Source: Candidatus Saganbacteria bacterium (GTDB lineage Bacteria > Margulisbacteria > WOR-1 > XYC2-FULL-46-14). From it: a stretch of DNA of 63,314 nucleotides. A program made the position numbers and the translations under genes. Every line of letters starts with the position of its first letter. Positions within the stretch are counted from its first letter, which is position 1. Below, piece after piece: positions 4,183-59,120 of the stretch. The stretch covers positions 1 to 63,314 of the forward strand of contig JABMQY010000014.1 of NCBI GenBank assembly GCA_013202975.1, read 5' to 3'. The notes beneath the pieces were generated by a model. It was not told the origin of the DNA. It was given only the letters and a program-made list of their open reading frames with translations, and searched no databases.

Positions 4183-6996
4183 ATGGGCCTATGGTGCAAT
4201 GGGGTTGAGGACTCAACCAAAAAACTGCAGCTTGATTATTTTGGCAGCCGGCAGAGACTATTTAAACGACTAGGCTACAAGGATCGAAATAATAATGGGG
4301 TAATTGATTTTGTTAAAAAGAGCTCTCTAAATAAATTAATAAAGGCCGACGAAGGTTACCACAGCACCTCATGCGCATACCCAGTTGATGATAACTGTGA
4401 CCAGAAAATAGATGAAAATGAGGCCTGGAGGCATTATGCCCGTATTTCACTAAACTCAACCTCCCTGGATCCATTCTTTCTAAATGAACTAAAAGGCAAA
4501 GACTTTAATGAGCAAAAAAAGTTCTTAGACAAAGTTGCTGGACACCTAAAGGGTAAATTTGGGTCGATGATCAGACTTTTATCCACTACCCTTCAAATCG
4601 GAATTAACAATAAAAGCACCGAATTAATCCGTTACGTTATTCACTACCTGCAGGGAAATTCAAAAAACAAAAACGGAATAGATCGAATGGCTTCTGTAAT
4701 TGGACAAAAGGTAAAAGGCTTTCAAGACAAAGATGTCCGGGAAATAATTAAAAAAATCATCAAAGAGGAACCAAAAGAGGGATTCGTCCCCTTCATAAAA
4801 ACTTTGGGCGGTATACTGGGAAAAAACCATGCAAAAACCTTTTTAGATGAAAAATGGCAGAGCACAAGCCCTTCAGATTTCCAATCTTTCGCAAAAGCAA
4901 TAACTCTTCTTGCCGTTGGCGCTGCAGACAGCCAAACCCGCACATACATTAAAAAAGCGATGCTCTCTGATGTTAACTTTGACTATAGACAAAAAATCCT
5001 TCGAGAGATTGAGGCAAAGAAACCTGTGGCTACTATCTTAAAAGAGAGCCTTAATTCCAAATTCAATTTCCCGCTTTTAAGTGAAAGGAGAAAAATAGCA
5101 CAGGTACTATTAAAAATGGGGGCTTCTGCAAGTGAGTTTGAAAAGAAAAGCTGGCATGGCTATGTTATTTTTAATCCTCCCGCAAATTTTCATCAAACCC
5201 AAAAAATGAAAGCCTTGGGAGATGCAGCCCTGCCCTCACTAAAAGCAGGCTTGAGAGACAATCAGAGCAAAGTTAGGGCCCATGCGGTCCTAATGCTTCG
5301 AAACATAAAAAGAGGACTCAGCCTAATTGTTAAATCCCTAAGAGATAGAGATCTTACTGTTCGCGAGATGGCAATTACCTGTTTAAAAGAGTTAAAAGAA
5401 AAACTCAAATACCCATATGAGTTTGAAGCAATCAGAGCAATTCTTCAATGCGCCGCAAGTTTTGTTGAAAAAATGACAGCTATTGAAATTTTAGGAGATC
5501 TAAAATACAAACCAGCAATTCCAGAGTTAACAAACCTCCTGCTAACCGATAAATCGGACCGGATTAGAAGAGCAGCAGCAGAAGCATTGGTAAAGATGGA
5601 TAGCATAAAAAGTATCTTAGCCTTAAAGAGAGTGCTAAAAAAAGGTCCCTCTTTGGATGTTAGAAAAGTTGCGACTGCTGCCATAAAGGCTTTTGCCCTA
5701 AAAAAGGGACACCCCATTAAAATAAAGATAAAATTAATCGAAATCCTGGTTGAAATCGGGCAGGTCAGCATTATTGCTCGTTTTGCTGAATATGATAAAA
5801 ATAACTCTATTCGAATCAAAGCAATCCAGGGATTATCAAAGATTAAGCACCCGGCAGTAATCCCGGTTCTTTTGAGAATTATAGAAAAGGACAAATCCCC
5901 TCTAGCCCAAAAGGAAGCGATGAATACCCTGACTCAAACTGACAATCACACGATTCCTGGGGCAATGCGTAAGATAGCAATTAATCATAGATCCGGAGCA
6001 ATAAGATTGCTAGCCCTAAAATATACTATAAAAAAAGGCGGATATGATATCGCCCCTACCCTTTCAACTATTCTAAAAAAAGATAGCCATCCAAAACTTA
6101 GAAAGATTGCAGCCAAGGCTTTATCAAAATTTAGCGGACGGGAGATTATTGGAGCATTATCACAATCTGCAACATATGATAAGGCCGGGGAAGTGCGGTC
6201 AGCTGCAAATTATTCTTTGGGTAAAATCGCAACTAATGCCAGCTTTCCAGACAAGATTCAAATAATGGCATTTCAGGGATTGATTAAGATGAAAAATCCG
6301 GTAAATATCCCGGTTCTCTCAAAATTTTTATTCGGTCCACATTTAATAGCAATTCGAAGAGATGCAGCCTGGGGACTGGGTTTATTAAAAAGCCCCAAAG
6401 CCATTCCGGCACTGATAAAGGCGGTTCAAACTGATAAATCTTATGTTGTTCAGATCACTTCTATCCGGGCATTGGCAAAAATCGGAGGAGGACAAACATC
6501 ACAAATTCTACTCGGTTTCCTGGCAAAGGCACAAGATAATAATCTAAAAATAATGATAGTAAATACCCTGGGAAAAAGCCGAGAAAAGAGCGCTGTCCCT
6601 GCTATCAAAAAAATCCTAAACCAAACAGTGCCAATTACCCTTAAAATATCCTGCATAAAAGCCTTGGGTAAAATAAACACCATTGAGGCAAATGCCCTGC
6701 TTCGGTATATTGCATCAAAAACCAATGACCCCTATTTGGGCGGAGAGGCAAGAATAGCATTAGAAGAGAGCGGTCATCCGGACAATATCTCTTTCTTTTC
6801 AACTATTATTAAAACCCACGACTCCCTAGCAGTCCGCTGCTCTGCGGCAAGGGCGCTTGGAAGAACAAAAAGCGCAAAGGCATATCCGATCCTTTTCTGG
6901 ATTTCTAAAAACGCCGGTGCCACACAACTAAAAGAGGCAGCAGAAAGGGCTATCAATAAAATTCAGTCTGCTAGAAATATACCCCAAAATAAGTGA
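4183..6996 (+). CDS. HEAT-repeat protein (paralog 3)
   Basis: 937-aa ORF with N-terminus nearly identical to 1626..4181 and many HEAT units (IRRAAAEALV, IRRDAAWGLG, VRCSAARALG). Confidence 0.88.
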   Translation: MGLWCNGVEDSTKKLQLDYFGSRQRLFKRLGYKDRNNNGVIDFVKKSSLNKLIKADEGYHSTSCAYPVDDNCDQKIDENEAWRHYARISLNSTSLDPFFLNELKGKDFNEQKKFLDKVAGHLKGKFGSMIRLLSTTLQIGINNKSTELIRYVIHYLQGNSKNKNGIDRMASVIGQKVKGFQDKDVREIIKKIIKEEPKEGFVPFIKTLGGILGKNHAKTFLDEKWQSTSPSDFQSFAKAITLLAVGAADSQTRTYIKKAMLSDVNFDYRQKILREIEAKKPVATILKESLNSKFNFPLLSERRKIAQVLLKMGASASEFEKKSWHGYVIFNPPANFHQTQKMKALGDAALPSLKAGLRDNQSKVRAHAVLMLRNIKRGLSLIVKSLRDRDLTVREMAITCLKELKEKLKYPYEFEAIRAILQCAASFVEKMTAIEILGDLKYKPAIPELTNLLLTDKSDRIRRAAAEALVKMDSIKSILALKRVLKKGPSLDVRKVATAAIKAFALKKGHPIKIKIKLIEILVEIGQVSIIARFAEYDKNNSIRIKAIQGLSKIKHPAVIPVLLRIIEKDKSPLAQKEAMNTLTQTDNHTIPGAMRKIAINHRSGAIRLLALKYTIKKGGYDIAPTLSTILKKDSHPKLRKIAAKALSKFSGREIIGALSQSATYDKAGEVRSAANYSLGKIATNASFPDKIQIMAFQGLIKMKNPVNIPVLSKFLFGPHLIAIRRDAAWGLGLLKSPKAIPALIKAVQTDKSYVVQITSIRALAKIGGGQTSQILLGFLAKAQDNNLKIMIVNTLGKSREKSAVPAIKKILNQTVPITLKISCIKALGKINTIEANALLRYIASKTNDPYLGGEARIALEESGHPDNISFFSTIIKTHDSLAVRCSAARALGRTKSAKAYPILFWISKNAGATQLKEAAERAINKIQSARNIPQNK

Positions 6997-7030
6997 AATT
7001 TCCTCCTTGAATTGACGATATATATATAGA
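6994..7030 (+). promoter_or_regulatory. Conserved alternative-sigma-like promoter, copy 1 (TGAAATTT-N14-CGATA-TATATATAG)
   Basis: TGAAATTT 6994-7001, 14-nt spacer, CGATA 7016-7020. Same motif and spacing as four other copies. Confidence 0.7.
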
Positions 7031-7063
7031 TAGATCACGAAGGACTGATAGGAGGTCTAAAAA

Positions 7064-7900
7064 GTGGCAATTGGAGCAACAAGAGTTCGAGCAAGACTTG
7101 AAACAATATTAACACCCAAATTAAATGATTTTAAAAGACCCCTAATTTCTAACCCACACTACGAAATGCCAAGGGGAACCAATGGTCATTCCTACAGAAG
7201 TGAAATAGCCATTGAAATTAATCCGGAAACAGCCTTAGATAATAGTACTCGTCTATATCTTCAGGCCACCAACTTTTTTCAGCTTAATCTGTTAAGACGA
7301 CTGCCGGGAGTCAAAACAATTTTGGGCAGCAGAAGAGAGAGGGAGGGCTGGGAACCCAAAAGATTTCGGAGAACTATCGGTTCTATTGCATCATTATTTG
7401 GAGTAGCTGCCGGCGGACTCGCATCTGCTATTTTTGTTTCACTCGGCTGGCCGGCATTAGTCGTCGGCGGTGCGGTTGGAGGTGGAATAGCATATAAATC
7501 CGGAGAGGATCTGGGTCAGCTGGCAGATTGGCTCATACCATCAGAGAAAAGCCTTGATAACTATGCAAACATAGTAGAGTTGGAGCTTAGCAGCCTAGAA
7601 TCTTTCCTATTTGACCCGCAACATACATTACCGCTTACCCCGCTGGATTTTATTTTATGCGTTTTAAAATATGATCCGCAGGCGTTATGCAAGTTTACTG
7701 TTGAGAATGATGGATTGCCACAAACCCAACCCATAAAAGAGCTTATAAACAGAGCAACCTTAGAAATGGTAAGAAGCAAAACCAGGGGAAGAACCCCCAT
7801 TTACACGCAAGAGGCGGTTGATGCACTAGAAGAAATAATCGAAAGAAGAGAAGCCGAAACTGAAGCATCAAGGAGAAACCTAGAAAATGGGGGTCATTAA
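7064..7900 (+). CDS. Hypothetical membrane protein with glycine-zipper-like hydrophobic hairpin
   Basis: 278-aa ORF, GTG start with GGAGG RBS. Central segment IASLFGVAAGGLASAIFVSLGWPALVVGGAVGGGIAY. Confidence 0.75.
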   Translation: MAIGATRVRARLETILTPKLNDFKRPLISNPHYEMPRGTNGHSYRSEIAIEINPETALDNSTRLYLQATNFFQLNLLRRLPGVKTILGSRREREGWEPKRFRRTIGSIASLFGVAAGGLASAIFVSLGWPALVVGGAVGGGIAYKSGEDLGQLADWLIPSEKSLDNYANIVELELSSLESFLFDPQHTLPLTPLDFILCVLKYDPQALCKFTVENDGLPQTQPIKELINRATLEMVRSKTRGRTPIYTQEAVDALEEIIERREAETEASRRNLENGGH

Positions 7901-10900
7901 CAATTGTAATATTGACGCGACAAACCGCCTGTTCCCCTCTTTAAACAAGAACTATAAAGATAAGGATGAGAGCTGTTCAATTGATGCTATAACTGCAAAG
8001 AAAAAACAAAAAGACATTCGCTACAGAATACTCAGCAGGCTTGAACAGAACAAATATGTAAAAGAGGGACTAAAGAAGATTGGCAGGAACGGAATAACCG
8101 GAGAAGGCTACGGCAATCCACAAAAATGCCATCCCCTTGATATTAACTGTGATAGAAAAATCTGCGAAAAAGAGGGCTGGATTGCTTATTTGTCCAATAA
8201 TGACAGCTCAAAAAAGTTCCTCCTTTTAGAATTAAACAAAATCAAGAATTTTAACGATAAAAAAACCTTTCTTGATAAAATAGCAAATTTGGCAAGAGAA
8301 AACAAAAAGGCGCTAAGTAATCTCCTGGCGGCATCGCTACAGGAAGGAATAGATAAAAAAGACAAAGAGCTGATCCTATATGTCCTCAATTATTTATGGG
8401 GCTCGACAAAGAACCACAAAGGAATCCACCCTCTCTGCATTATGGTTGGCAAAAATGTTTCCGGCCTAACAAATGATAAAGTAAAACCTATATTAGAAAA
8501 AATACTGGATGACAAAACCCGCAACAAAGACAAAAGAAAAGAAAAAGAAAAAGATTTTCCATATGCCTTTGTAAAAGTTGTGGTTGCAGTGCTGGGAAGA
8601 ATTGATGCGGAGCAAATGTTTCCCGATGATAATTTCCATTCCAGCGCAAACATAAACCGCACAAACATCGCTGCTGCAATAGGATTTTTATTAATAAGAA
8701 ATAAAGAATTTGTTAACGAGACCGACATCCATCATTCTTACCTCAAAAACCAACTGGGGCGCTATAGTGGTTCTGATAAATTTAAAAATGAAATATGCCG
8801 GGGATTTTATGAAATAGGAGACAAAAAAAGCATCGGAGCTCTGCGCACCGTGCTTTCAAATTCAAATAGTTTTTCGGTCTGCCTGACTGCTGTTAATTAT
8901 TTACTTTCACTAAAAGCCTTCCGTGATGACAGAGAAAAAAAAGAATGGCAGGCATACCAGATGATATCTGCAAGGGATCAAAAAGGATTAATCAAACTTA
9001 GGGATTGGGCCATACCGGCGCTTAGAAATGCAATCTTTGAAGAAAATGATGAAGAAGTTATTAAGCTTGCCGCCGAAACCCTCGGAAAGATCGGATCTGA
9101 CCAGGCTGTTTACAATTTATCAGCTCCGCTCTATCGATTAAACAACTATAAACACGGCAAGTTATTAGTAGCTGCGTTAGGCGCAACAAAGAGCCCAAAG
9201 GCGATCCGTGCACTTGCGGAAGAGTTACGAACAAAGGATCTGATGATACCTTCACTTGAAGCTCTGTATATGCTAAATCTGCCGGAAAAAACAATCCCAA
9301 TCCTTAAAGAAACAAAAGACCAACACCCTTTTGTAAATGTAAGGGCTCAAGCCGCAGAAATACTAATAAGGTTAAAACAATATCGCAATAATGAAGAAAA
9401 AGAGGAATTGAACAGTTTTAACCTGATAGCCAAAAACAAATGGAAAGAAGTAAGAAAAAATAAAACCATTGCCATTCCGGCCTTAATCAGCGCCTGCTTA
9501 TATGACCAGGATACTAATGTTCGCAACCAGGCGGCCTATACCCTCAAACTAATCGATATCCAAAAAACCAACACCCTTTTGCTTTCAACAATAAAAAATA
9601 ACAAATATTCTTTTGAAATAATGATAAAGGCAACTAAAGCGCTTGCCGTTATTTCTGACAAAAAAAATATCCTGCCATTAATTAGAATATTCAATAAGAG
9701 CAAATCTGATTATTTTAAAGCAGAAATAGTGCGAACCCTGGGATTTACCGGAGGACCAATAGTTGAAAGATTCTTAAAAAAAGCCATAAGAAACAAACGC
9801 CTGATAATAAGACAGGCTGCTGTCTCAGCCTTTGTTCTAAAAATTACCCCTCAAAAAATACAAACCCTCAGAAACTTTCTAAATGACCCCAACGCACGAA
9901 TAAGGGGGACAGCGGCAAGAGCCCTTATGCGCCTCAAACTTTATAAAAAACCAGCTCTAATGGCGCATGTCATGATCGACTCAATCACTTTCCCCAATTC
10001 AAAGAAGGGGGATGACGACACAAAAATATGGGAAAAAATTGAAAAACTTGGAAATCCGGCCCTCCCGGCGCTAATTTTAACCGTAAAAGATGGACCGACC
10101 CATGTCCATGAAGAAAATGCGGCCAGGATACTTGGGTTAATTGGCAATCCAAAAGCCTGTCCGGCTTTAGGGTATGCGCTGCTTTCCAACCGTGAGGAGA
10201 AGGTAAGAAAAATGGCAGCCTGGGCATTGGGCAAGATTAGAAGTTCGTCTGCGGTCACTTCCCTACACAAAGCTTGGGATTTGGAGAAACACCATGCCAC
10301 AAAAAAAATGATCTTAGAAGCTTTGACAATAACCCTTCGGGGGGATAAAAAGATATTTTTCTTAACAAAAGTATTGCGCGAAGAACAAAATGCCCATCTT
10401 AGAGCAAAAGCAGCTCAACTTTTGCTCAGAATAAATCCGGCACTCGACAGCAAAACAAAACAGTTCCTTGAAGCATACAGTCTTATTGCCGGAAATAAAC
10501 ATTACAAATGGAAAAGATTAGAAAAGATTGGATCACAGGCTATTCCGGCCCTTTCGGCCTTCTTATTACAAAAGAATCCCTGTAATACTGATAACAATTA
10601 TTCATGTGGGGAAAAATTTAACGAAAACCGGCAACAGGCAATTGTCCTCCTAGGGAAAACAAAAGACCAAAAAGCACTAAAGGCACTATTTTTTGTTCTG
10701 AAAAATGATTTTCCCGTTGAACTAGAAATATCAGCGGTTGAATCAATTGGAAATTTAAACCAGCCTTATGCAGCACTCATTCTAATCAAACACTTAAATT
10801 CAGATTATTACAAGCTCACGATTAAAATACTTAAAATTCTTCGCTGCCTAGGAAACTCCGACCCCAAAACAATAAGGGCTCTCAACAATTTAATAAAAAG

Positions 10901-11537
10901 TAGCTCTTCAGAAATTCGAGCAGAGGCAGCCGAAACACTGTTAAAATTTAACGCCTATACCAGCACAACGCAAGCGCGAACCTTAAAACTGCATATACTG
11001 CTTGCAAACAAAAAACCGGACAAATGGATAGAAATATTTCGCTTTGCCGAAACAGCAGTACCGGTTCTTAATTTTGCATTATTAAATGATGATAATTACA
11101 CAATCCGCTCGGATTGTGCCCGGGCATTGGGATGGATAAAAGACAAGAGATCGCTGAAATATTTATTGCGGGCTTCAAGAACAGATAATACGAATGTCGT
11201 CAGAGTAGCGGCAGCAAAAGCGCTTGGTTATTTTGGGGACAAAAGAGCCATACCGGCCCTTAGAAGAAGCTTAAAGGGAAGATATGTACAAGTTCGATCA
11301 GCAGCCGCTTTTGGACTTTTAAAATTGAAAGATTACAAAAATATTGCCCAGAAAGAAGTTCTAAAGGCTCATTTATTAATCGGCAGCAAAAATAAAAAAA
11401 GATGGAAAAAACTTAAAAAACTGGGCAAAAACGCACTGCCAGTACTAAAAAGATTTCGAGATGAGCTTGGTCACTGGAATGACGATAGACCAATAGTTCA
11501 AAACCTAATTGAAACTATCGAAAAAGAGAAAAAATAG
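7887..11537 (+). CDS. Large HEAT-repeat protein (divergent paralog 4)
   Basis: 1216-aa ORF. Shares EGYG...HPLDINCDRKICEKEGW and the FLxxEL...FLDKIA helical block with paralogs 1-3, followed by many HEAT units. Confidence 0.88.
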   Translation: MGVINNCNIDATNRLFPSLNKNYKDKDESCSIDAITAKKKQKDIRYRILSRLEQNKYVKEGLKKIGRNGITGEGYGNPQKCHPLDINCDRKICEKEGWIAYLSNNDSSKKFLLLELNKIKNFNDKKTFLDKIANLARENKKALSNLLAASLQEGIDKKDKELILYVLNYLWGSTKNHKGIHPLCIMVGKNVSGLTNDKVKPILEKILDDKTRNKDKRKEKEKDFPYAFVKVVVAVLGRIDAEQMFPDDNFHSSANINRTNIAAAIGFLLIRNKEFVNETDIHHSYLKNQLGRYSGSDKFKNEICRGFYEIGDKKSIGALRTVLSNSNSFSVCLTAVNYLLSLKAFRDDREKKEWQAYQMISARDQKGLIKLRDWAIPALRNAIFEENDEEVIKLAAETLGKIGSDQAVYNLSAPLYRLNNYKHGKLLVAALGATKSPKAIRALAEELRTKDLMIPSLEALYMLNLPEKTIPILKETKDQHPFVNVRAQAAEILIRLKQYRNNEEKEELNSFNLIAKNKWKEVRKNKTIAIPALISACLYDQDTNVRNQAAYTLKLIDIQKTNTLLLSTIKNNKYSFEIMIKATKALAVISDKKNILPLIRIFNKSKSDYFKAEIVRTLGFTGGPIVERFLKKAIRNKRLIIRQAAVSAFVLKITPQKIQTLRNFLNDPNARIRGTAARALMRLKLYKKPALMAHVMIDSITFPNSKKGDDDTKIWEKIEKLGNPALPALILTVKDGPTHVHEENAARILGLIGNPKACPALGYALLSNREEKVRKMAAWALGKIRSSSAVTSLHKAWDLEKHHATKKMILEALTITLRGDKKIFFLTKVLREEQNAHLRAKAAQLLLRINPALDSKTKQFLEAYSLIAGNKHYKWKRLEKIGSQAIPALSAFLLQKNPCNTDNNYSCGEKFNENRQQAIVLLGKTKDQKALKALFFVLKNDFPVELEISAVESIGNLNQPYAALILIKHLNSDYYKLTIKILKILRCLGNSDPKTIRALNNLIKSSSSEIRAEAAETLLKFNAYTSTTQARTLKLHILLANKKPDKWIEIFRFAETAVPVLNFALLNDDNYTIRSDCARALGWIKDKRSLKYLLRASRTDNTNVVRVAAAKALGYFGDKRAIPALRRSLKGRYVQVRSAAAFGLLKLKDYKNIAQKEVLKAHLLIGSKNKKRWKKLKKLGKNALPVLKRFRDELGHWNDDRPIVQNLIETIEKEKK

Positions 11538-17406: not shown

Positions 17407-18078
17407 ATGAGTTTACCAATTCAAAAAGTACCGCCAAACAAGCCGAGAAGCTATATCAAAGAAGATACTAACGACGAGATTCCTCTTGAGTGCCAGGTCA
17501 AATATTGTTCAATAGAAAAAATGAGAAAACTACAGGAAGAAGAAAGATTAACCAGGGAACAACAAAGGGCTGCAAAAAGAGAATTTCACGTTATTAATCC
17601 ACCATTAGTTGACGGATCGTTAACCATTCAGGGTGGATATGAGTATTCAAAAAGCAAAGAGGGAAAGGCAATTCCCGCGGTTGGTGCAACCATACATCTT
17701 CGGCCTTCCTTTAATCTGGGTCTACAATATAGTTTTCAAATAGAGGGAGGGGTCAATGAAAAAAAAGGATCACTTGCCCTAAAACATAATGTTGGGGCTA
17801 CTTTTTACAAAATCTTATCCAAAAAGCACAAAGAAAACTTGGGAATCAAATTTGCCTTTACTTATGGCAATGAACTCTATAACAGCATAGATCAGAAAAA
17901 CACTCATTTGGTCGGTTTCACAACTGGCCTGGAGTATGGAAACTATTCTCCAAGATTTTTCTTAAACTATTCTTATCTTAGCAATCTTAATGAAGAAACG
18001 TCACACCAGTTTACATTAGGGGTAAAATGGTTTTTCAGAACTCCGCAACTGCAAGGACCGGCGGAGTCTAGTCAATAA
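17407..18078 (+). CDS. Hypothetical protein with beta-barrel-like C-terminal region and no signal peptide
   Basis: 223 aa with GGGAG RBS. Alternating amphipathic strands (LTIQGGYEY, LGLQYSFQI, FTLGVKWFF) and a charged N-terminus. Confidence 0.7.
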   Translation: MSLPIQKVPPNKPRSYIKEDTNDEIPLECQVKYCSIEKMRKLQEEERLTREQQRAAKREFHVINPPLVDGSLTIQGGYEYSKSKEGKAIPAVGATIHLRPSFNLGLQYSFQIEGGVNEKKGSLALKHNVGATFYKILSKKHKENLGIKFAFTYGNELYNSIDQKNTHLVGFTTGLEYGNYSPRFFLNYSYLSNLNEETSHQFTLGVKWFFRTPQLQGPAESSQ

Positions 18079-36203: not shown

Positions 36204-36920
36204 ATGACAGTAATCAAAGAACAGATATTAACCTGTATTAATAAAAGCTGCACATCAATAAGCTGGACCGGAGCTGTGGATAAACTCTTTCAACAAAAGT
36301 GCAAAAGACCCCCCACAGTTAAAGAAAATGCAGCTTATAAAAAACGGCTTCTATCCGTTCCGCAAAACAGCGGCAAAGCAACACCGGCCGAAGCTGACGT
36401 TAGATGGTGGCCTTATGCTCGACAAAAATTAACCAAACACATAAAATTATTAGGACCAGATCCAGAATGCAAGGTATCAAAAAAGACCCCAACTCCCCCT
36501 CCTCCAAAACCGGTCAAGAAAACTGATTCTAGACCCCCTGATGCAGGAGTAGGCTCCGCACCAGATAGTACTGTAGCAAGATTAAAACCAGATTTATCTA
36601 AACCCAATTTAAAACGTCCTGATTTACAAACTCCTGACTCAAAAACAGCCCCAAAAGTAAACCAAAAAGCACTCTCTAACACCCTAAGCCGCCTGATTAC
36701 TAAAAGGAGCAAAGAACTGACTAAATGGAAAGGCAAACTGCATGAATTTAATGTAAAAAGCCAGGATAACAAAATCAATACTGTTATTGAAACCTCAAAA
36801 AAAGCTGTAACCATTAAGGGAAAAAGGATTGCCCTACGAAACCTGAAAGTAGTATTGAAACATGCAAAAACCGCTTATGAGGTAGCCTATCAAAAAGAGA
36901 TGGGGGGAATAAAAAAATGA
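36204..36920 (+). CDS. Hypothetical Lys/Pro-rich protein
   Basis: 238 aa with a Cys-containing N-terminus and a central low-complexity linker (TPTPPPPKP, PDAG, PDLSKP, PDLQTPD). ATGA overlap with the next gene. Confidence 0.75.
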   Translation: MTVIKEQILTCINKSCTSISWTGAVDKLFQQKCKRPPTVKENAAYKKRLLSVPQNSGKATPAEADVRWWPYARQKLTKHIKLLGPDPECKVSKKTPTPPPPKPVKKTDSRPPDAGVGSAPDSTVARLKPDLSKPNLKRPDLQTPDSKTAPKVNQKALSNTLSRLITKRSKELTKWKGKLHEFNVKSQDNKINTVIETSKKAVTIKGKRIALRNLKVVLKHAKTAYEVAYQKEMGGIKK

Positions 36921-38422
36921 GCGGAGGAATAACAAAAATCTGCTCTGACTTTGGGAAACAAAAAGTTTACCAGCCCGAAGCTATAAAAGAAAAAGAGGAA
37001 ATCCTATCATTAAATACAATTATTGAAGCAATTAAAATACAGAATGAATTTAGTTCTCTTGATTTTTCAAAATTGCCCAAACCGGCAATAATTTCCTTAA
37101 TTAAAATGAAATATCAGTGCCCTGCCCCATGCAACAAAGCCATAATCCCATTAATAATAGAAGCACTAAAAAGTAACACCTTTAATGGTGCAGAAAAAGA
37201 ACAAGTTAATTCCTATATCCAAAAACTAGAGGAAATTCACAAGAAATTACAAACCCTACCTATCTATAAAGAATACAAAAAATATTTGGCAAAGCAAAAT
37301 GGACATTTAAATAAACGTGTAGAAAAGACACTCGAAAAATTGACCGAAAAGGCTACACGGCCAGATATAGTTCTGCAAATCAAAAAGAAATGCGCAGCAG
37401 GTTATGTTAAAAAAATAGTAAAACCTAAAAATGGCAAAAAGAATGGAGAAAAAAAACCGGTCAGACCATTCTTTGAATGGAGCCTGCGCGGAGCAATTGG
37501 CTACGGGGCAAGAGCCTCTGGATCCGATAATCCAGCGGTCTTCGCAACAGAAGAGAGAGGATTACTTTTACGTGGCGCGGCAAGCTTGCGCCTTAACATT
37601 AAAAAAGTCCCGCTTCAGCTTGATTACAATGGTTCTATCCCCTATTACATCGATAAGGGTGAGTTTTTTGCTGAAGGCCACAGGGTAAAACTTTCGACTA
37701 ACCCTAAAATTTCTAAAAAACTAGATCTGGTCGCATCTGCCGGGGGACAATTCTTTCATCAATATTATCCCAGTGATGAAAACAAAGATATTAATGCCTT
37801 CACTCAATTCTTAAGAATTAATTACAGACCAAGCAAAAATCTATCAATTAATCTGGATGAAAATCTGATTGCCGGATCAACCAACACAAAATCCTCCCCA
37901 AAACCAGATGTTGCAGCAGAGTTTACTGATCCGTCTTTAATAAAACTAGAATTCAACCCAGGGGCATCTTATAAAATAGGGCCGGTTTCTCTTTTTGCTG
38001 GTGCAAATATCGGTTATGGCGAAAGCGAGTTTTTATACGGTGGACATGCCGGTGCAGTTTTAAAAACAGAAGATCACCATGAAGCTAATTTAAGATTCGA
38101 TTGCACTAATGTTTTTGGTCCTTCTCTAATTGGAAGATACTATTATAATTTTAAGAAAGACAAAAAACAGGGAGTCGGAGCATTGATTTCATATGCACAC
38201 CAAAACAACACTTATCATAACGTTTCTGGAAAAGCTTTTGCAAGAATAAAGCTGGGCCCGATTGAGATACAACCCTTTGTCGGTCTTGGCTCTGCAACAA
38301 ACAGCTCAAGCGTTGTCGATATTAACGGCGGAATATCAATATCAATCGGAGACACAATAAGAGGTTTGAACCCAAGTGTTCTGCGGCCTCATTCTCCGGA
38401 GCCTCTGCCGGAGGAATTTTAA
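36917..38422 (+). CDS. Hypothetical protein: helical N-terminus + outer-membrane-beta-barrel-like C-terminus, no signal peptide
   Basis: 501 aa. From FFEWSLRGAIGYG onward, many alternating strands with Gly/aromatic girdles (LFAGANIGYG, QPFVGLG, INGGISISIG). Confidence 0.75.
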   Translation: MSGGITKICSDFGKQKVYQPEAIKEKEEILSLNTIIEAIKIQNEFSSLDFSKLPKPAIISLIKMKYQCPAPCNKAIIPLIIEALKSNTFNGAEKEQVNSYIQKLEEIHKKLQTLPIYKEYKKYLAKQNGHLNKRVEKTLEKLTEKATRPDIVLQIKKKCAAGYVKKIVKPKNGKKNGEKKPVRPFFEWSLRGAIGYGARASGSDNPAVFATEERGLLLRGAASLRLNIKKVPLQLDYNGSIPYYIDKGEFFAEGHRVKLSTNPKISKKLDLVASAGGQFFHQYYPSDENKDINAFTQFLRINYRPSKNLSINLDENLIAGSTNTKSSPKPDVAAEFTDPSLIKLEFNPGASYKIGPVSLFAGANIGYGESEFLYGGHAGAVLKTEDHHEANLRFDCTNVFGPSLIGRYYYNFKKDKKQGVGALISYAHQNNTYHNVSGKAFARIKLGPIEIQPFVGLGSATNSSSVVDINGGISISIGDTIRGLNPSVLRPHSPEPLPEEF

Positions 38423-38423
38423 T

Positions 38424-39947
38424 ATGGTTGTAAAAATAGAAAAAACTCCTTTACTAAAAAGGATCTATCAATCACCTATCAGAAAAATTGCTCCGCTGAT
38501 TGGCGCAGCCGCCGGACTTATTACAGATTTAGGAATCAGCTTTTGGCAATTCAGACTCTCTTTGGTTGTTGCGATCCCTGCCTGCGCGGTTTTAGCCTGG
38601 GCACTAGGACGATTTAATGGTCTTTTGGTTGAAAGAACAGATGCATTGGCTGAATCAAAACAGCAAAGAAGCGATAATGAAAAACTGAGAAAAAAAACAG
38701 TCCAATTAAATGGAAGATTAAAAGCCAGTAAAGAAAAACTAAGAGATTTGGATGACCTGGTTCGGGCAGAATCAGGAAAACACACATCTTCTTCGGATTT
38801 GGGCAGGTTTTTCAGCGGAGTCCGCCAAATCTTGCCGGAGCCAACACTTGAAAGCGAATTGAGGAGATTGAAAACAGTCAACCTAAACCGTTTTGTATTT
38901 AAGAAAAAACTCGGCGAGGGCGCAGCGGGAAAAGTTTTTCTGGTATATGACACCGAAATGAGAAGAACAATAGTAATAAAAGTATTAAAGCAGTTTGAAT
39001 CAAATCCCCAGTTTCTGCGCAGGTCAATTGATGAGATCTACAGCCTTTCGTCGCTTGGACAAAACCAGAATATCTCCCCAAACATTGCAATTGTATATGA
39101 AGCAAAAAGAGCAGACCAGGATAACACTATTTCGTACCAAGAAGCAGGAGACGAAAAACTTGACGTTATCCACAAGAACAGCATAATAATAATGATGGAG
39201 CATGTTGACGGCAAATCACTTGAAAACTATTTAACCAGGATTTCTCAAATCGAGGCTCTTGACATTGTAATAAAACTAATGAATGTCCTAAAACATGTAC
39301 ACATGGACGGTATTGTCCATCGCGATCTTAAACCGGAAAACATTATTATTCCCGAAAAAGCTGACAAAAGCCTTTTCATTGAAAGATTAAAGCTGCTCGA
39401 TTTTGGGCTGGCCAAAAACACCGAAGACCAGGACAGAAAAATAACCCAAGCCTTTGATATTGCCGGCACCCCGGAATTCATGTCCCCCGACCAATGGGGC
39501 GCGTTTAGGGATGTAACTCCGGCTTCAGACATTTTTTCGGTTGGAATGCTGCTCTATACCATGCTAACAAAAAAGTTTCTTTTTGGAGAATATTCCGGTG
39601 ATGCCCACCTTGAATTCCTGGAGAGAGTCAATAAAACTGATATTGGACAGGTAATAATGGACAACAATGTTCCTTTTGAACTAAAAGGCCTGTTAATTGC
39701 CATGCTAGAGAGAAAACCAGAAGACAGAACAACCAACCATGACCTTATTATTCAAGATCTGGAAGAGGCAAAAAAAATCATGTTGGGAGCAAACCCGGCA
39801 ACAATCCACACAAGCAGAGAAACCCTTCTTTGGAGAGAGGAAGAACAAGATGCACAAAAGGCAATTAAACTTGAAGATGAGGAAGACATTAGCACAGCAG
39901 ACACAAGACACGTTAATCTTGATGAGATCGAGGAACAACTAAAATGA
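38424..39947 (+). CDS. Membrane-anchored Hanks-type Ser/Thr protein kinase
   Basis: GEGAAGKV, VIK, HRDLKPEN, DFG, GTPEFMSP, DIFSVG. N-terminal hydrophobic pair and coiled coil. Start reassigned to ATG 38424 (GGAGG RBS). Confidence 0.93.
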   Translation: MVVKIEKTPLLKRIYQSPIRKIAPLIGAAAGLITDLGISFWQFRLSLVVAIPACAVLAWALGRFNGLLVERTDALAESKQQRSDNEKLRKKTVQLNGRLKASKEKLRDLDDLVRAESGKHTSSSDLGRFFSGVRQILPEPTLESELRRLKTVNLNRFVFKKKLGEGAAGKVFLVYDTEMRRTIVIKVLKQFESNPQFLRRSIDEIYSLSSLGQNQNISPNIAIVYEAKRADQDNTISYQEAGDEKLDVIHKNSIIIMMEHVDGKSLENYLTRISQIEALDIVIKLMNVLKHVHMDGIVHRDLKPENIIIPEKADKSLFIERLKLLDFGLAKNTEDQDRKITQAFDIAGTPEFMSPDQWGAFRDVTPASDIFSVGMLLYTMLTKKFLFGEYSGDAHLEFLERVNKTDIGQVIMDNNVPFELKGLLIAMLERKPEDRTTNHDLIIQDLEEAKKIMLGANPATIHTSRETLLWREEEQDAQKAIKLEDEEDISTADTRHVNLDEIEEQLK

Positions 39948-41470
39948 CAGAATATATTTGTCTAAATAATAACGGGAGACCAAAATGCTATCCAAAGACA
40001 AAGACCTATCCTATAAAATTTACACGTGCCCGAACAAATGCAAAAGTAAAAGCAACCTCCAGGTCCAAAAGAGGAGGCAGCTTCACCTTTGGCTGCATTC
40101 CAATCAATAACTATGAGGCTGATGGAGCTGTTGCTCCATCTGACACAAATAAAGATACAATCCCACCTGACAAGAAAATTCCGGATCAAGGACCAGATCA
40201 AAAGCCTGATCAGAGAGTTGATCAAACAGTTGTTGACCAGAAAACCGATAAAACAGACATTTATCCTTGGCCAGATAAGGGTCCGGATAAATCTCCCGAC
40301 ATTACAATTCCGGATAAAGGTCCTGATATTCTACAACCCGACAAGGGCCCTGACAAAGAACCAGATATTACTGTGCCGGATGTTGGTCCAGACAAGGGGC
40401 CTGATTTTGCTGTCCCTGATAAAGGGCCGGATAAGGGGCCGGACGTTGCTGTTCCTGATGTTGGACCAGACCAGACAGTTTACAAAGATATAACTCCACC
40501 GGATGTAGGGAAGCCAGACAAGGGATTTGTATGCACTACTGCGTATAATAGTAAAAACTTCTCAACCGGGACTTCGAAGAATATAGATAATTGGGCGTTG
40601 CCAGGATCCCTATTATCAAAAAGATCATGGTACTATTGCTGGCACGCGTCTTCAGGAACACTACCAGGAACCCCTTTTGCTCTGGAAAATCCGGCAGGGG
40701 GGACAGTAAAAATGACAACCGATCCGCAAACAAAAGAGCCGGCATTGCTTCTGGACGGACAAACAAAGAATATAAACACAGTATTAAAATACAAATGGGT
40801 AAACCCAGGAATAAAAAATGTTAATGGCTCTGCTCTCTTAATGAGAGGAAGACAACATAGCAGCGATCGCGTCCCGCCGCATGGATCAGAATCCAGTATT
40901 GAAATTTTTGATGATTCAATGGTTTTTGGTTTTGGGTTGGCAGGAAAACAGGCACTGGATGGATCAAACAATACTTATGTTACATTTGACACAACAACAA
41001 AAAGTAATACGTACACAGGAGAAGTGAAAAATAATGCATATAAAGTTTATGTTAATGAAGGATCGTCTCCTCTTTTAAGTGGAGTAAAAAAATATATTCC
41101 AACAGAATATAGGGTTGGCATTGGAGATACTGGGGGCACTCCAGACGGAGTTTTTTATATTAATGATTTTTGTATTCATCCGACTACTTCAACTGTCCCA
41201 ATTGCATCCGGCGGAAGCCACGAAATAATATACAACCTGGGTAATTTTGTTAAATCGGCCAAAATCAGCTCAACCGGATCAACAAAAGATGTGACAGTTG
41301 AGGCATACGTTAGCTCAAATGGTTCAAGTTGGACTAAGGCAACTGTAAGTACAAGTGGCGAGATAAGCTCAACCCAAAGCTACAAGCACATCAAAATCAA
41401 ATTTCTTTTCAGCTCCGCAAAGATTTCAAGGCTGGACGGATACAAACTGGAATACTGCACCTATAAATAG
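39944..41470 (+). CDS. Hypothetical protein with PDxG tandem repeats and beta-sandwich C-terminal region
   Basis: 508 aa. Repeats PDKGPD/PDVGPD over about 120 aa, then a S/T/G-rich beta region. No N-terminal signal peptide. Confidence 0.8.
   Translation: MTEYICLNNNGRPKCYPKTKTYPIKFTRARTNAKVKATSRSKRGGSFTFGCIPINNYEADGAVAPSDTNKDTIPPDKKIPDQGPDQKPDQRVDQTVVDQKTDKTDIYPWPDKGPDKSPDITIPDKGPDILQPDKGPDKEPDITVPDVGPDKGPDFAVPDKGPDKGPDVAVPDVGPDQTVYKDITPPDVGKPDKGFVCTTAYNSKNFSTGTSKNIDNWALPGSLLSKRSWYYCWHASSGTLPGTPFALENPAGGTVKMTTDPQTKEPALLLDGQTKNINTVLKYKWVNPGIKNVNGSALLMRGRQHSSDRVPPHGSESSIEIFDDSMVFGFGLAGKQALDGSNNTYVTFDTTTKSNTYTGEVKNNAYKVYVNEGSSPLLSGVKKYIPTEYRVGIGDTGGTPDGVFYINDFCIHPTTSTVPIASGGSHEIIYNLGNFVKSAKISSTGSTKDVTVEAYVSSNGSSWTKATVSTSGEISSTQSYKHIKIKFLFSSAKISRLDGYKLEYCTYK
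40162..40525 (+). repeat. Coding tandem repeat (PD[K/Q/V]GPD)
   Basis: PPDKKIPDQGPDQKPDQ...PDKGPDKSPDITIPDKGPDILQPDKGPDKEPDITVPDVGPDKGPDFAVPDKGPDKGPDVAVPDVGPDQ...KPDKG. Confidence 0.85.
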
Positions 41471-41471
41471 C

Positions 41472-46031: not shown

Positions 46032-47372
46032 CTATCTCAACCCCAACTGCTCCATCTTCGCAATTAAGGTGGTTCGGTGTATTTCTAGAATTTTTGCAGC
46101 TTTTGACTGATTGCCATCGGTCAGTTTCAAAATATCCAGGATATGATTTCTTTCAAAGACTGCCCTGGAGTCCCTTAAACTCTTTGAGATAAAACAGCCG
46201 TCAAGAGCAAAGCGTAAAGGGATTTTAGAAATTACGTCTGATTCCGCCAAGACCACCGCCCGCTCGATTACATTTTTCAATTCACGCACATTGCCCGGCC
46301 AGACGTATTTCTTGAGTGCTTCTAAAACCTTGGGATCAAATCCTTTTATATCTTTCTTGAGTTCAAGGTTAAACTTATTTAAAAAGTAGCCGGCTAAATA
46401 CGGGATGTCTTCGCTTCTCTCTTTTAGCGCAGGAAGCCTGATAGGAATGACATTTATCCGGTAATATAAATCGCTTCGAAAATCCCCCTCTTTAATTGCT
46501 TTTTCTAAATCTAAATTTGTTGCAGCCAGAATCCGGACATCTGTTTCAATCGGCTTTTCTCCCCCTATTCTCTCAATCTTTCCGCTCTCAAGCACTCGCA
46601 AAAGCTTGGCCTGCATGGAAGGACTCATGCAGCCGATTTCATCCAAAAACAAGGTCCCCCGATCTGCTATTTCGAATTTTCCGATCTTGCGCTCAATAGC
46701 TCCGGTAAAGGCGCCGCGTTCATGCCCAAAAAGCTCAGATTCTAATAAATTCTCAGGTATAGCAGCACAATTTATGATTACAAAAGGCCTCTTTCTGCGA
46801 AGGCTTTTATTATGAATTGCATGCGCTACCAGCTCTTTCCCGGTGCCCGATTCTCCCGTTATTAATACCGTAGAATTAGTCGGCCCAATGTTTTCTATTG
46901 CAGAAAATATATTCTGCATTACCGGGGTTGTGCCAATTAAATCTTCATATGAATGCTGCTCATCCAGGGTTGTACGCAGATAGATATTCTCTCTGACTAA
47001 TGAATTTTTCTGCATGACTCTCTCAAGTGTCAGCAGCAATTCATCCGCATCAAAAGGCTTGGTGATATATTCAAAAGCACCCGCTTTTACCGCCTGGACC
47101 GCGTCCCTGGTATCGTCACTGGCAGTAGCAATTATGACCTCAACTGTCGGCTCGATCGATTTAATTTTTTCCAGTACCTTTAATCCATGCATGTCAGGAA
47201 GTTTTAGGTCAAGAACTACTGCAGAATAAGTTGATTCTTTATACTTTGCCAGTCCATCTTTTGCTGAGGAGGCCAAAACAACCCGATAGCTATCTTCCAG
47301 CAATGCCTTATAAGCATAAAGCATACACTGCTCGTCTTCTATTACTAAAATCGCCGGTTTTTCTGTATTCAT
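46032..47372 (-). CDS. sigma54-dependent response regulator (NtrC/AtoC/ZraR family)
   Basis: Receiver (VIEDE, VLDLKLPD, KPF), GESGTGKE, GAFTGA, LFLDEIG, WPGNVRELKN, HTH GNQSKAAKILEIHRTTL. Start reassigned to ATG 47372 (GGAGG RBS). Confidence 0.95.
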   Translation of the reverse strand: MNTEKPAILVIEDEQCMLYAYKALLEDSYRVVLASSAKDGLAKYKESTYSAVVLDLKLPDMHGLKVLEKIKSIEPTVEVIIATASDDTRDAVQAVKAGAFEYITKPFDADELLLTLERVMQKNSLVRENIYLRTTLDEQHSYEDLIGTTPVMQNIFSAIENIGPTNSTVLITGESGTGKELVAHAIHNKSLRRKRPFVIINCAAIPENLLESELFGHERGAFTGAIERKIGKFEIADRGTLFLDEIGCMSPSMQAKLLRVLESGKIERIGGEKPIETDVRILAATNLDLEKAIKEGDFRSDLYYRINVIPIRLPALKERSEDIPYLAGYFLNKFNLELKKDIKGFDPKVLEALKKYVWPGNVRELKNVIERAVVLAESDVISKIPLRFALDGCFISKSLRDSRAVFERNHILDILKLTDGNQSKAAKILEIHRTTLIAKMEQLGLR

Positions 47373-47459
47373 AAATTCCTCCATTTTTTTTAGGTTACGA
47401 AAGGTAACCCTTCCTTCTATATGTATATCGTCAAAAACCGACAATAATTTCACTCAATT

Positions 47460-47989: not shown

Positions 47990-48027
47990 GGGGGGATCAA
48001 CGGGAGCTGGTCCCTCCTTTATTTATT
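47990..48027 (+). terminator. Intrinsic terminator
   Basis: GGGGGGATCA/TGGTCCCTCC stem (with G-U pairs) followed by TTTATTTATT. Confidence 0.55.
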
Positions 48028-48049
48028 AATACACGGAGGGTATGAAGAT

Positions 48050-50494: not shown

Positions 50495-50500
50495 ACCTGT

Positions 50501-51022: not shown

Positions 51023-51077
51023 AATTTTTATTTTAGCACTAATTAATTACTGCCACAACGAGATCTTTAATAACCCC

Positions 51078-51106
51078 TTGCACCAAAACAAACATAGTGG
51101 CATAAT
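51078..51106 (+). promoter_or_regulatory. sigma70-type promoter
   Basis: TTGCAC-17-CATAAT with extended TG, 13 nt before ATG 51120. Confidence 0.6.
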
Positions 51107-51119
51107 ACTCACAATATAT

Positions 51120-57896: not shown

Positions 57897-58494
57897 TCCT
57901 ACCAGAATGGAGCTGCTGCGGCTTAGCCGGCGCCGGGTTATGGCGGAGCGCGGGCACAAACTGCTAAAAGACAAGCTGGACGGACTGACCCATCGCTTTA
58001 TGGATATTTTAAAGGTTTACCGCAAGAGCTCGGCCAATACCTACCAGCAGTTAAGCAAAATTTTTACCAAAATGATTCTTGCCTCTGCCCAGGTTGATGA
58101 AACCACTCTTGATATGCTTACTTTTTCTCCAAAGCGTGAATCGACATTAGATGTCACCATAAAAAACATTATGGGGGTAAAGATTCACTCCTATAACTTA
58201 AAAACTGAGGGGGAGTTAAGAAACTACGGATATTTACACGTGCCGGCCGAGGTTGATGAATCATCAAAGGAATTTGCCGACCTCTTCCCTACCCTGATTA
58301 AACTGGCAGAATCAAAAAAGGCTATTGAACTAATTGCAAAAGAAATATATGATATTAAGCGAAGGGTAAATGCGCTTGAGTTCATCTTAATCCCCGAATT
58401 AAGCTCAATGATTACTTATATTAAGATGAAATTAGCCGAGATGGAGAGGGCCAATCGAGTTGCTCTAATAAAAATTAAGGGGGCTGTTAAATAA
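57880..58494 (+). CDS. atpD: V/A-type ATPase subunit D
   Basis: [25 protein letters not shown]. Confidence 0.97.
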
Positions 58495-58495
58495 T

Positions 58496-58831
58496 ATGAG
58501 ATTTGAAATTGACGAAACCCATTTTACGGTTGCTAATTTGTTGTTACTTCTTTTGGCCTGGGCTAATACCTGCTATATTTTGGTAATATTCTTAAGAAAT
58601 ATCCTCCCCCTTTTGGTAACCACAATTTTGGTGATAACTGGCACAGTTCTTACCCTGGCCATGGTTATTATAACCATAATTGTGACCATCCGCTGGATCC
58701 AGCATCATAATATGGGCTGGATATTTTTGATCGGCCTAATAATCCTTTTCGTCCTCTCCTTTAGCCTTGAATCGACTGTCCGCGGTATCTTTATGCGTGA
58801 ACAGACCTATAGAAATCAAGAAATGTACTAG
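58496..58831 (+). CDS. Small hypothetical membrane protein (3 TM)
   Basis: 111 aa, three hydrophobic segments, starting 1 nt after the atpD stop. Confidence 0.65.
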   Translation: MRFEIDETHFTVANLLLLLLAWANTCYILVIFLRNILPLLVTTILVITGTVLTLAMVIITIIVTIRWIQHHNMGWIFLIGLIILFVLSFSLESTVRGIFMREQTYRNQEMY

Positions 58832-59071
58832 AATTCTTTAATCCCTCAACCCTAATCTTATCCCTGGATAGTGATCTTCTCGGATATCCCTGATAGGAAA
58901 AGCCCAAATCGTTACCCAGATAGTCCCAGATTTCCCTGATATCATATATTTTTTTGTCATTTTTATCTGGGAGATCAGAGAGATCCGGGAAAAATCTGAG
59001 GGCCTTAATATCCGGGAGATCCGGGACTATCAAAATCAGGGATAAAATCCGGGATCTGGGTTTAAAGAATT
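58832..59071. repeat. 240-bp imperfect palindromic element built of 9-nt units
   Basis: Terminal IR AATTCTTTAATCCC / GGGTTTAAAGAATT. Left arm has ATCCCTGAT-type units and right arm has ATC(C/T/A)GGGAG-type units. Confidence 0.65.
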
Positions 59072-59085
59072 AATACAAAATTACC

Positions 59086-59120
59086 TGAAATTTCTTGTTA
59101 AACCAACAGATAATATATAG
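59086..59120 (+). promoter_or_regulatory. Conserved alternative-sigma-like promoter, copy 5
   Basis: TGAAATTT-CTTGTTAAACCAAC-AGATA-ATATATAG (C->A in the -10 box), followed by GGGG and ATG 59130. Confidence 0.65.

Follow-up and report, generated by a model that had tools for sequence, protein, structure and literature searches.

A probable sigma-28-like promoter motif in front of mostly uncharacterised genes on a Candidatus Saganbacteria contig

A 63.3-kb stretch of DNA from a Candidatus Saganbacteria bacterium (contig JABMQY010000014.1, positions 1 to 63,314; this whole stretch is called the window in the following) carries a short two-block motif, TGAAATTT-N14-MGAWA, in front of several mostly uncharacterised genes. 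This raises the question of whether the motif is a promoter and, if so, which type of sigma factor would read it. A first-pass annotation of the window had suggested a sigma-28-like promoter that marks a regulon of effector-like orphan genes without signal peptides. Based on the evidence presented here, six sites of the window are quite probably promoters for RNA polymerase with a sigma factor of the group-3 FliA/WhiG (sigma-28) family, in an uncultured freshwater member of Candidatus Margulisbacteria.

Exact copies of the motif were found where the annotation had placed them, at positions 6994 (+), 17359 (+), 32978 (-), 36167 (+) and 59086 (+). All five are intergenic and oriented towards a start codon, which follows 10-43 nt past the CGAWA block. 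In dinucleotide-preserving shuffles of the window, 0.04 copies are expected and none of 100 shuffles reached five. The annotation had held that a motif at background frequency would speak against its idea; the shuffles place the motif far above background. Other details that it gave were borne out as well: sites 2 and 4 are identical at 28 of 30 positions, three sites continue with ATATATAG, the -10 box lies 15-48 nt before the start codon, and the first proteins encoded downstream in the window have no hydrophobic N-termini.

The octamer TGAAATTT alone is not enriched in the window (10 copies, 13.6 expected). Its intergenic copies number five, within approximately 2.4 kb of intergenic DNA out of 63.3 kb, and they are the same five that have MGAWA after N14. 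If one or two mismatches are allowed, the motif occurs at background level (22 matches versus 25.8 expected) and nearly all matches lie within genes. Thus, there is neither a halo of degenerate copies in coding DNA nor a diffuse compositional effect. A sixth copy with one mismatch was detected at 47452..47426 (-), where TGAAATTA-N14-CGATA, followed by TACATATAG, lies 5' of a gene for a sigma-54 activator. A position weight matrix (PWM) built from the six sites scores its members at 19-30 bits, while the next best position of the window reaches 14.9 bits. Employing a PWM trained on metagenome sequences only (see below), sites 1, 6, 2, 3 and 4 were recovered at 46-22 bits, with site 1 scoring highest at 46 bits, and no other window position reached 12 bits. 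At 22311-22343 (+), a look-alike, TGAAATAA-N18-CGATAA, lies between two minus-strand genes and antisense to gene 22416-22979; with its wrong spacing, it probably arose by chance. Neither Rfam families nor tRNA genes were detected in the window.

What type of promoter could this be? In exact register, the motif reads (T)GAAATTT-N11-G(A/C)CGATA(T/A), which corresponds to the sigma-28/FliA consensus TAAAGTTT-N11-GCCGATAA except for two bases of the -35 box. The -35 element then spans -34 to -27 (G-34 AAA T-30 TTY) and is followed by an 11-nt spacer, an extended -10 element at -15 to -8, a 7-nt AT-rich discriminator and a purine. Discriminator and purine start site would explain the recurring ATATATAG. 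The E. coli FliA consensus is TAAAGTTT-n11-GCCGATAA, and in the sigma-28 open complex of P. aeruginosa, the fliC promoter reads -36 TCTAAAG -30 and -15 GCCGATAA -8. Aligned to such promoters without any shift, the motif places AAA at -33 to -31, TTT at -29 to -27 and CGATA at -13 to -9. Six of the eight bases of the -35 box agree with the consensus, and the spacing to the -10 box is invariant and equal to that of sigma-28. The -10 boxes of the six sites (GACGATAT, GACGAAAT, TGCGATAA, GTCGAAAT, GACGATAT and ACAGATAA) fit a GCCGATAA-like element with a near-invariant CGA. The FliA/sigmaD geometry proposed by the annotation therefore holds, as the register is exactly that of structurally defined sigma-28 promoters. 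Transcription would be expected to start about 8 nt after the -10 box.

Conservation in relatives and metagenomes

The window derives from a freshwater metagenome and is assigned to Margulisbacteria by its CTP synthase, which shares 73-77% identity with its best named matches, proteins of Candidatus Margulisbacteria, WOR-1 or Saganbacteria, and up to 87% with metagenomic ones. Among GTDB representatives, no relative with the 223-aa protein encoded behind site 2 was found, and matches to V-ATPase subunit I reached only 24-31% identity. We turn to relatives' DNA fetched by protein similarity and to metagenomic loci, which are numbered with the letter L. Within 162 kb of DNA fetched by protein, nine of 10 loose motif matches lie directly upstream of genes. 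Taking the window and these relatives together, the density of sites is about one per 10-18 kb.

Two genes allow a direct view on conservation. Orthologues of the sigma-54 activator with 57-58% identity were found in L013 (WOR-1) and L135, and both have TGAAATTT-N14-CGATA at the same place (L013 9967, L135 9955). Other activator orthologues (L011, L012 and L136) have TGnTATAAT promoters instead, and the link between motif and activator is therefore lineage-dependent. Repeated TGTCGA(C) half-sites precede the TGnTATAAT promoter of the activator orthologue in L011 (9800-10000) and L012 (720-920), which suggests a different upstream regulator for the same gene. For the 223-aa protein, a comparison with 1.8 billion representative proteins gave four homologues (36-40% identity), all of which lack a signal peptide. 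Two of them were looked up and both have the motif upstream. In L138/L139 the homologous gene resides in the same neighbourhood next to dapA, with TGAAATTC-N14-CGAAA at L138 4969, and in L140/L141 it follows an exact copy, TGAAATTT-N14-CGATA, at L140 175. L138 furthermore contains three consecutive motif promoters before three consecutive genes. Since the motif was kept while the proteins downstream diverged to 40-57% identity, purifying selection acts on its function.

A metagenome scan with the longer pattern TGAAATTT-N14-MGATAWATAT gave at least 120 stretches; figures on conservation and downstream genes refer to the matches listed. Among these, 84 sites are of the CGATA type. At positions left free by the pattern, 52% of them carry G at -15, and in 73% position -14 is A or C, resulting in GACGATA or GCCGATA. 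The 84 listed sites further share an A-rich tract upstream of the -35 box, a T-rich stretch at -19 to -17 and a purine-rich, Shine-Dalgarno-like tract after the discriminator. About half of them (51%) lie outside any open reading frame (ORF) of at least 100 codons, compared to 17% of random positions in the same loci, and 29% are both noncoding and followed by a gene start 8-100 nt downstream, compared to 3% at random. The 65 first genes downstream of listed matches fall into 62 unrelated clusters; thus the motif is a promoter of general use rather than a leader sequence tied to one gene family. Loci with one site often hold several more outside the exact pattern, and two of the motif-hit contigs match Margulisbacteria contigs found via protein searches (a 1.67-Mb WOR-1 contig and a 223-kb contig). 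The 27-nt pattern common to sites 2 and 4, scanned against the metagenome collection, gave no matches, so that this collection evidently lacks the source sample.

Most members of the regulon are proteins of low conservation that have neither Pfam domains nor Sec signals; in addition, there are regulators (the sigma-54 activator, Ser/Thr kinases, response regulators and a GGDEF protein). Downstream of the matches listed, Pfam matches belong to 30 families, nearly all with a single member; the typed proteins include two Ser/Thr kinases and one each of GGDEF, response-regulator, STAS, SLH, subtilase and TrbL-like type. A protein with a transglutaminase-core domain is also found downstream of the motif outside the window. 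Seven of 10 motif-driven genes in the window lack a Pfam match above threshold, in contrast to about 10 of 37 other genes (Fisher p ~0.02). Signal-peptide-like N-termini were seen in about 6-9 of the 65 first proteins behind listed matches (~10%). The annotation's view that the motif precedes signal-less, uncharacterised proteins thus holds for the majority, in the window as well as in metagenomes, while the exclusivity it claimed does not, given the regulators and the signal peptides. Nor is every unit an orphan: site 6 precedes an NtrC-type regulator that is conserved in two relatives, and the 223-aa protein has homologues, one of them syntenic.

Which sigma factor might read these sites? 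E. coli FliA, compared with all of the fetched DNA, matched two sigma genes, both on motif-bearing contigs (L043 and L073). On L043, a FliA/WhiG-like sigma gene is followed by flgB-flgC-fliE-fliF-fliG-fliH-fliI ... fliJ, and the FliI protein clusters at ≥90% identity with a Saganbacteria protein. On L073 (5776-9172; proteins named Margulisbacteria by NCBI), flhA, a motif promoter (7067, -), a 125-aa gene, a short ORF and the gene of a 203-aa FliA/WhiG-like sigma factor are found in a layout that suggests autoregulation of the sigma factor. The identity of L043, L073 and L138 was confirmed by the names in their protein clusters. The 203-aa sigma factor seemingly lacks region 3; the 125-aa protein has no Pfam match and could be a partner of the sigma factor, such as an anti-sigma factor. 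On L043 (636-2473), two Pfam-less genes on the opposite strand, each with a motif promoter (659 and 1817), separate fliI from fliJ, and their transcription would be predicted to collide with that of the flagellar operon.

Alternative explanations and the export idea

Promoters of an extracytoplasmic function (ECF, group 4) sigma factor of the sigmaW type (TGAAAC-N16-CGTA), which the annotation had named as an alternative, share their spacing with TGAAAT-N16-CGAWA, and ECF regulons often hold envelope and uncharacterised proteins. However, the -35 box lacks the AAC core and has AAAT in every copy. The -10 element, G(A/C)CGATA(T/A)AT, shows CGA where ECF promoters have CGT, and the extended GC/GA at -15/-14 together with ATA at -11 to -9 is a sigma-28 signature. 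Furthermore, no sigma/anti-sigma pair adjoins any site of the window, and the sole two sigma genes on motif-bearing contigs are FliA/WhiG-like and reside in flagellar loci. An ECF promoter thus fits worse and is, in our opinion, quite improbable. A variant of the lineage's housekeeping promoter, read by the primary sigma factor, would agree with the high frequency of sites given above; TGAAAT is loosely similar to TTGACA, and a TATA-like hexamer might be hidden in the AT-rich bases that follow CGA. However, housekeeping operons in the window and in relatives have ordinary extended -10 boxes (TGnTAnAAT), and none of the housekeeping units of the window has the motif. Examples are the V-ATPase operon with the box TGGTAAAAT, gene 51120 with TGGCATAAT at 51098, and the operon beginning with a GT4 gene with TGTTATAAT, which is conserved in L007 (the window copy, TGTTATAATATATACCCGTAATG, is nearly identical to that of L007). 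A housekeeping promoter of L007 reads TTGAAC-N17-TATAAT. Consequently, the motif represents a different promoter class, as the annotation had assumed when it set the motif apart from sigma70-type boxes. Moreover, no hexamer of the motif at a spacing of 16-18 nt combines A as second with T as sixth base, and the invariant CGA plays no part in sigma-70 recognition, which leaves a housekeeping variant with next to no probability. A sigma-70 reading, as well as TTGAC within the spacer as -35 box, was rejected on spacing. A generic scan of the window for sigma-70 promoters and terminators was uninformative, with 50 promoter-like sites against 45 expected.

If the motif were not a promoter at all, it might be the operator of a DNA-binding regulator. 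It is a conserved intergenic element of two blocks, and operator-like repeats occur nearby and elsewhere (TGTAG-N8-CTACA in the window and the TGTCGA repeats in L011/L012). The motif, however, is asymmetric, strictly gene-oriented and at a fixed short distance 5' of a Shine-Dalgarno sequence or start codon. In addition, the 67-112-nt gaps hold no other promoter candidate, and the two blocks coincide base for base with known sigma contacts, so that we regard an operator as extremely unlikely. Similarity might also stem from common descent of a spreading cassette or repeat that carries a promoter, and not from selection for sigma binding. This would agree with the near-identity of sites 2 and 4, which extends through the spacer, with two near-identical sites in L011, and with the insertion of motif-driven units into conserved operons (the 1061-aa gene and a 17.4-kb island of the window and the two L043 genes between fliI and fliJ). 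In contrast, only the -35 box, the -10 box and the discriminator are conserved across sites, while most spacers and all flanks differ, and the motif was kept at related genes whose proteins diverged to 40-57% identity. Neither terminal repeats nor target duplications or recombinase genes are present at the borders of the units, and in L043 the insert is too tight to accommodate them. Descent from a cassette as the cause of the similarity is thus very unlikely. A cassette origin as such concerns only the history of the sites and is compatible with promoter function; it was rejected, in an integron-like form as well, since there are no flanking repeats and no room for them.

Several observations weigh against sigma-28 promoters as well. 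The -35 box has G for T at -34 and T for G at -30. E. coli FliA requires T at -34, where a change from T to C cut activity tenfold; the cognate sigma factor must therefore have an altered region-4 specificity. Site 5, with AGATA, is the weakest member and stays below 12 bits with the metagenome-only PWM, and partial conservation within the spacer (AAA..TTT) exceeds what is usually explained by sigma contacts. As candidate readers of the motif, the sigma factors of L043 and L073 match the FliA/WhiG model best but score below the NCBIfam curated cut-off (133.6 and 72 versus 189.6 bits); that of L073 is short with its 203 aa. The 63-kb window itself contains no sigma gene and no flagellar gene, and a FliA of this organism is presumed from its relatives. 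No flagellin, chemotaxis or motor gene is among the 65 first genes behind listed matches, a sample that is small and biased by the pattern, and no flagellin was detected in any fetched locus with B. subtilis Hag as query. Finally, a search for RNA sequencing runs containing the window sequence found none, and the start sites given here are predicted only.

A much wider interpretation of the sigma-28 promoters can be envisioned. In Margulisbacteria, the flagellar sigma factor would act as master regulator of a separate cell state (for motility, dispersal, attachment or attack, for example), with a large, fast-evolving and lineage-specific regulon. A substantial part of the products would be exported via the flagellar type III apparatus by basic, proline-rich, non-hydrophobic N-termini, and genes would have been recruited by landing, even in essential operons, with a 36-bp promoter. 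We consider this whole scenario rather unlikely. The first 30 residues of motif-driven proteins have a mean net charge of +2.9 versus +1.2 (p = 7e-7), with more proline and less leucine, if motif-driven genes of L015-L134 and the window are compared to other long ORFs of the same loci, an imperfect control set that makes this difference a hint only. Recurring N-termini are MPKITGS, MSGGITK, MTVNGITGSK and MPGPTE. The window contains no secretion machine, and relatives have flagellar export genes. Such N-termini and export genes are compatible with export, yet not diagnostic. General secretion is hard to reconcile with a cytoplasmic transcription activator, a membrane kinase, HEAT proteins and protein sizes that reach at least 1395 aa; outside the window, Sec-dependent surface proteins belong to the regulon as well. 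The effector status and the type-III-like export that the annotation had ascribed to the regulon products are thus not supported, as nothing shows them.

Transcription units and their genomic setting

The promoters and the units that they would drive are listed in Table 1.

Table 1. Predicted sigma-28-like promoters (P1-P6) and downstream units in the window.
Feature	Position	Strand	Description
P1	6994..7029	+	-35 TGAAATTT 6994-7001; -10 GACGATAT 7014-7021; AT-rich discriminator; predicted +1 G 7029
Unit 1	7064..11537	+	278-aa protein (7064-7900), then overlapping 1216-aa HEAT-repeat protein (7887-11537)
P2	17359..17394	+	-10 GACGAAAT 17379-17386; predicted +1 ~17391-17394
Unit 2	17407..18078	+	223-aa beta-rich protein, no signal peptide; small family
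P3	32943..32978	-	-35 32978-32971; -10 TGCGATAA; predicted +1 ~32941-32943; leader 5-7 nt
Unit 3	29751..32936	-	1061-aa protein, inserted between divergent V-ATPase and GT4 operons
P4	36167..36202	+	28/30 identical to P2; -10 GTCGAAAT; predicted +1 ~36202, 2 nt before ATG (near-leaderless)
Unit 4	36204..41470	+	Tightly coupled operon: 238-aa, 501-aa, Ser/Thr kinase and 508-aa proteins
P5	59086..59121	+	Perfect -35; -10 ACAGATAA, A for C at -13; predicted +1 ~59120-59121; 19 bits (window PWM)
Unit 5	59130..63314	+	≥1395-aa protein, no signal peptide; runs off window
P6	47417..47452	-	TGAAATTA-N12-GACGATAT-ACATATA-G; 38.7 bits (metagenome-only PWM); predicted +1 G 47417
Unit 6	46032..47372	-	NtrC-family sigma-54 enhancer-binding response regulator (receiver + AAA+ + HTH_8)

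The 278-aa protein of Unit 1 has two glycine-rich hydrophobic segments and no Pfam match, and its GTG start at 7064 is preceded at 8 nt by an AGGAGG Shine-Dalgarno sequence. Three tandem paralogous HEAT-repeat genes occupy 1-6996, and the second gene of the P1 unit is a fourth paralogue. The first of them is cut by the window edge, as bases 2-196 extend the frame of gene 197-1624 upstream. The three tandem genes have in common an N-terminal domain (MGLWCNGVEDSTKKLQLD...) that contains two EF-hand-like loops, DRNNNGVIE and DxNxDRKIDEKE. AlphaFold2 without alignment gave models of low confidence for the 223-aa protein of Unit 2 and the 501-aa protein of Unit 4 (predicted local distance difference test scores of 35 and 33). 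The 1061-aa protein has no homologue among 5.8 billion proteins. In Unit 4, the 238-aa protein is basic and proline-rich, the 501-aa protein consists of a helical N-terminal and a beta-rich C-terminal half, and the Ser/Thr kinase is membrane-anchored. In the 508-aa protein (39944-41470), PDKGPD/PDVGPD units are repeated over a long stretch (~residues 85-190), which follows a basic N-terminus and precedes a C-terminal domain rich in beta structure. Transcription of this unit may extend into 41489-42316. AGATA variants as in P5 precede genes in the relative L011 as well, and in the protein of Unit 5 a WK(K/E)EWG motif, seen by eye, recurs about every 230-460 residues. For Unit 6, the real start lies at about 47372, as the listed ORF was over-extended. 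Applied to the motif-driven proteins of the window, NCBIfam and PADLOC delivered generic kinase and HEAT matches only and no recognisable defence system.

The predicted leaders of Units 1-6 are very short, with about 35, 13, 6, 2, 9 and 40 nt. Predicted starts next to the start codon were observed at 36202-36204, at 32941-32936, at the V-ATPase promoter TGGTAAAAT (33001-33013) and at L138 4969-5003, with distances of 0-7 nt. Such positions, as predicted from the promoter register, hint that leaderless or near-leaderless mRNAs may be common in this lineage.

The genomic setting points to insertions. In L007-L009, the V-ATPase operon lies 52 nt from a divergent GT4-epimerase-MurA-YbeY-CorC-PyrG operon, and in L007/L008 it is contiguous. 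In the window, by contrast, the small subunit-I-K-E part (33013-36091) is split from C-F-A-B-D (53598-58831) by a 17.4-kb island (36204-53587) that carries sites 4 and 6. A second insertion, the 1061-aa gene with site 3, separates the V-ATPase and GT4 operons. Several of the driven units are lineage-specific insertions into conserved operons, each of which would have brought its own compact copy of the promoter. If so, the so-called orphan genes that interrupt V-ATPase and flagellar operons would be predicted to have dedicated promoters of their own.

The borders of these units show further peculiarities. The C-F-A-B-D half begins 10 nt after gene 52007-53587, with which it may now be co-transcribed. 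The gene pair at 51078-53587 encodes a signal-peptide protein with a C-terminus similar to FlgD_ig or type IX secretion system tails and a ~526-aa signal-peptide protein. It recurs at 26-37% identity on the motif-bearing contigs L056, L089, L092, L098, L121 and L129, and on L056 the gene for a homologue of the ~526-aa protein has a motif promoter of its own. An imperfect palindrome of ~240 nt (58832-59075) lies between the V-ATPase operon and P5 and is built of 8-9-nt units, TCCC(T/A)GAT in the first half and ATC(C/T/A)GGGA in the second. Folded as RNA, it reaches -90 kcal/mol (z = -5.4); a hairpin that acts as terminator or insulator is conceivable, and so is a series of sites for protein binding. 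Behind the last gene of either V-ATPase half, immediately 5' of P4 and P5, lie C-rich, G-poor tracts (36092-36150 and 58832-58866) in which CCCTA/CCCTAA-like repeats occur; they may be Rho-loading sites that insulate these promoters.

Site 6 might be the entry to a regulatory cascade. A palindrome, TGTAG-N8-CTACA, upstream of the activator gene (47481-47498) is a probable activator binding site, and a sigma-54 promoter, GGCGCGGAAATTGCT, at 47528-47542 (+), the sole match in the window, faces gene 47567-47980. The 137-aa protein encoded by this divergent gene has an orthologue in L013 with 48% identity. L013 (9869-9961) and L135 (just upstream of 9955) show the same three elements in the same order, with a palindrome spacer of N7/8, and the conserved form of the sigma-54 promoter across the module is GGCGCG(G/A)AAATTGCT. 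The sigma-28-like P6 would drive the NtrC-type activator, which would then probably act at the adjacent sigma-54 promoter of the 47567 operon.

Comparison with known systems

Margulisbacteria are an uncultured sister lineage of Cyanobacteria, and their members include symbionts of protists and animals. To our knowledge, nothing is known about gene regulation in this phylum. In this so far unstudied phylum, the motif would define a promoter class of the FliA type whose regulon has expanded, and the sigma-28 assignment as such is well supported. As this class is recognisable from sequence, it picks out a co-regulated set of perhaps at least 100 genes per genome, most of them annotated as hypothetical. 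The compact promoter and the sigma-28 to sigma-54 cascade with its conserved putative binding site could furthermore serve as parts for reporter use in surrogate hosts.

Compared to FliA class-3 promoters of E. coli, Salmonella and P. aeruginosa (TAAAGTTT-N11-GCCGATAA), architecture and register are identical. However, the motif has G-34 and T-30, and its regulon is mostly unannotated and non-flagellar. In B. subtilis, the sigmaD consensus is TAAA-N15-GCCGATAT, and the sigmaD regulon comprises motility, chemotaxis and autolysin genes. The motif, (T)GAAA-N15-G(A/C)CGATAT, has the same spacing and a near-identical -10 element, with the terminal T in most copies, while the first base of the -35 tetramer differs. 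FliA/WhiG factors can also run non-flagellar developmental programmes with GCCGATAA-like -10 boxes, as in Chlamydia and Streptomyces. The regulons of Chlamydia sigma-28 late genes and of Streptomyces WhiG are small and characterised, whereas at least 100 sites per genome are estimated here from site density. SigmaW promoters resemble the motif in spacing and in the TGAAA start of the -35 box; the motif, in contrast, lacks AAC, has CGA-TA with an extended G(A/C) and has no adjacent sigma/anti-sigma operon.

In Campylobacter jejuni, the sigma-28-dependent, non-flagellar Fed and Cia proteins are exported by the flagellar type III apparatus. A sigma-28-type promoter before non-flagellar proteins without Sec signals is common to both cases, and relatives of our organism have flagellar export genes. 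However, export is demonstrated in Campylobacter, and number and size of the proteins described here argue against general secretion.

We know of no predatory or biphasic life cycle for this organism. By analogy with Bdellovibrio FliA, a FliA-type sigma factor might have left its role in late flagellar genes and become a global switch, by which cells turn to a motile or dispersal-type state; this testable idea hints at a two-state life style. In Bdellovibrio bacteriovorus, which belongs to a different phylum, start sites and phase-specific expression were measured, while those described here are predicted. The FliA consensus TTAAG-N16-CCGATA was found there in 92 of 140 attack-phase promoters, and the targets include many non-flagellar genes, along with genes for proteases, for cell-surface and uncharacterised proteins and for transcription regulators (Karunker et al., 2013; PMC3627812). 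An expanded FliA regulon of uncharacterised non-flagellar genes is hence already documented, and to call the set in the window a candidate novel system, as the annotation did, is overstated. Rich in unknowns and including regulators, the Bdellovibrio FliA regulon is the closest precedent for the one described here.

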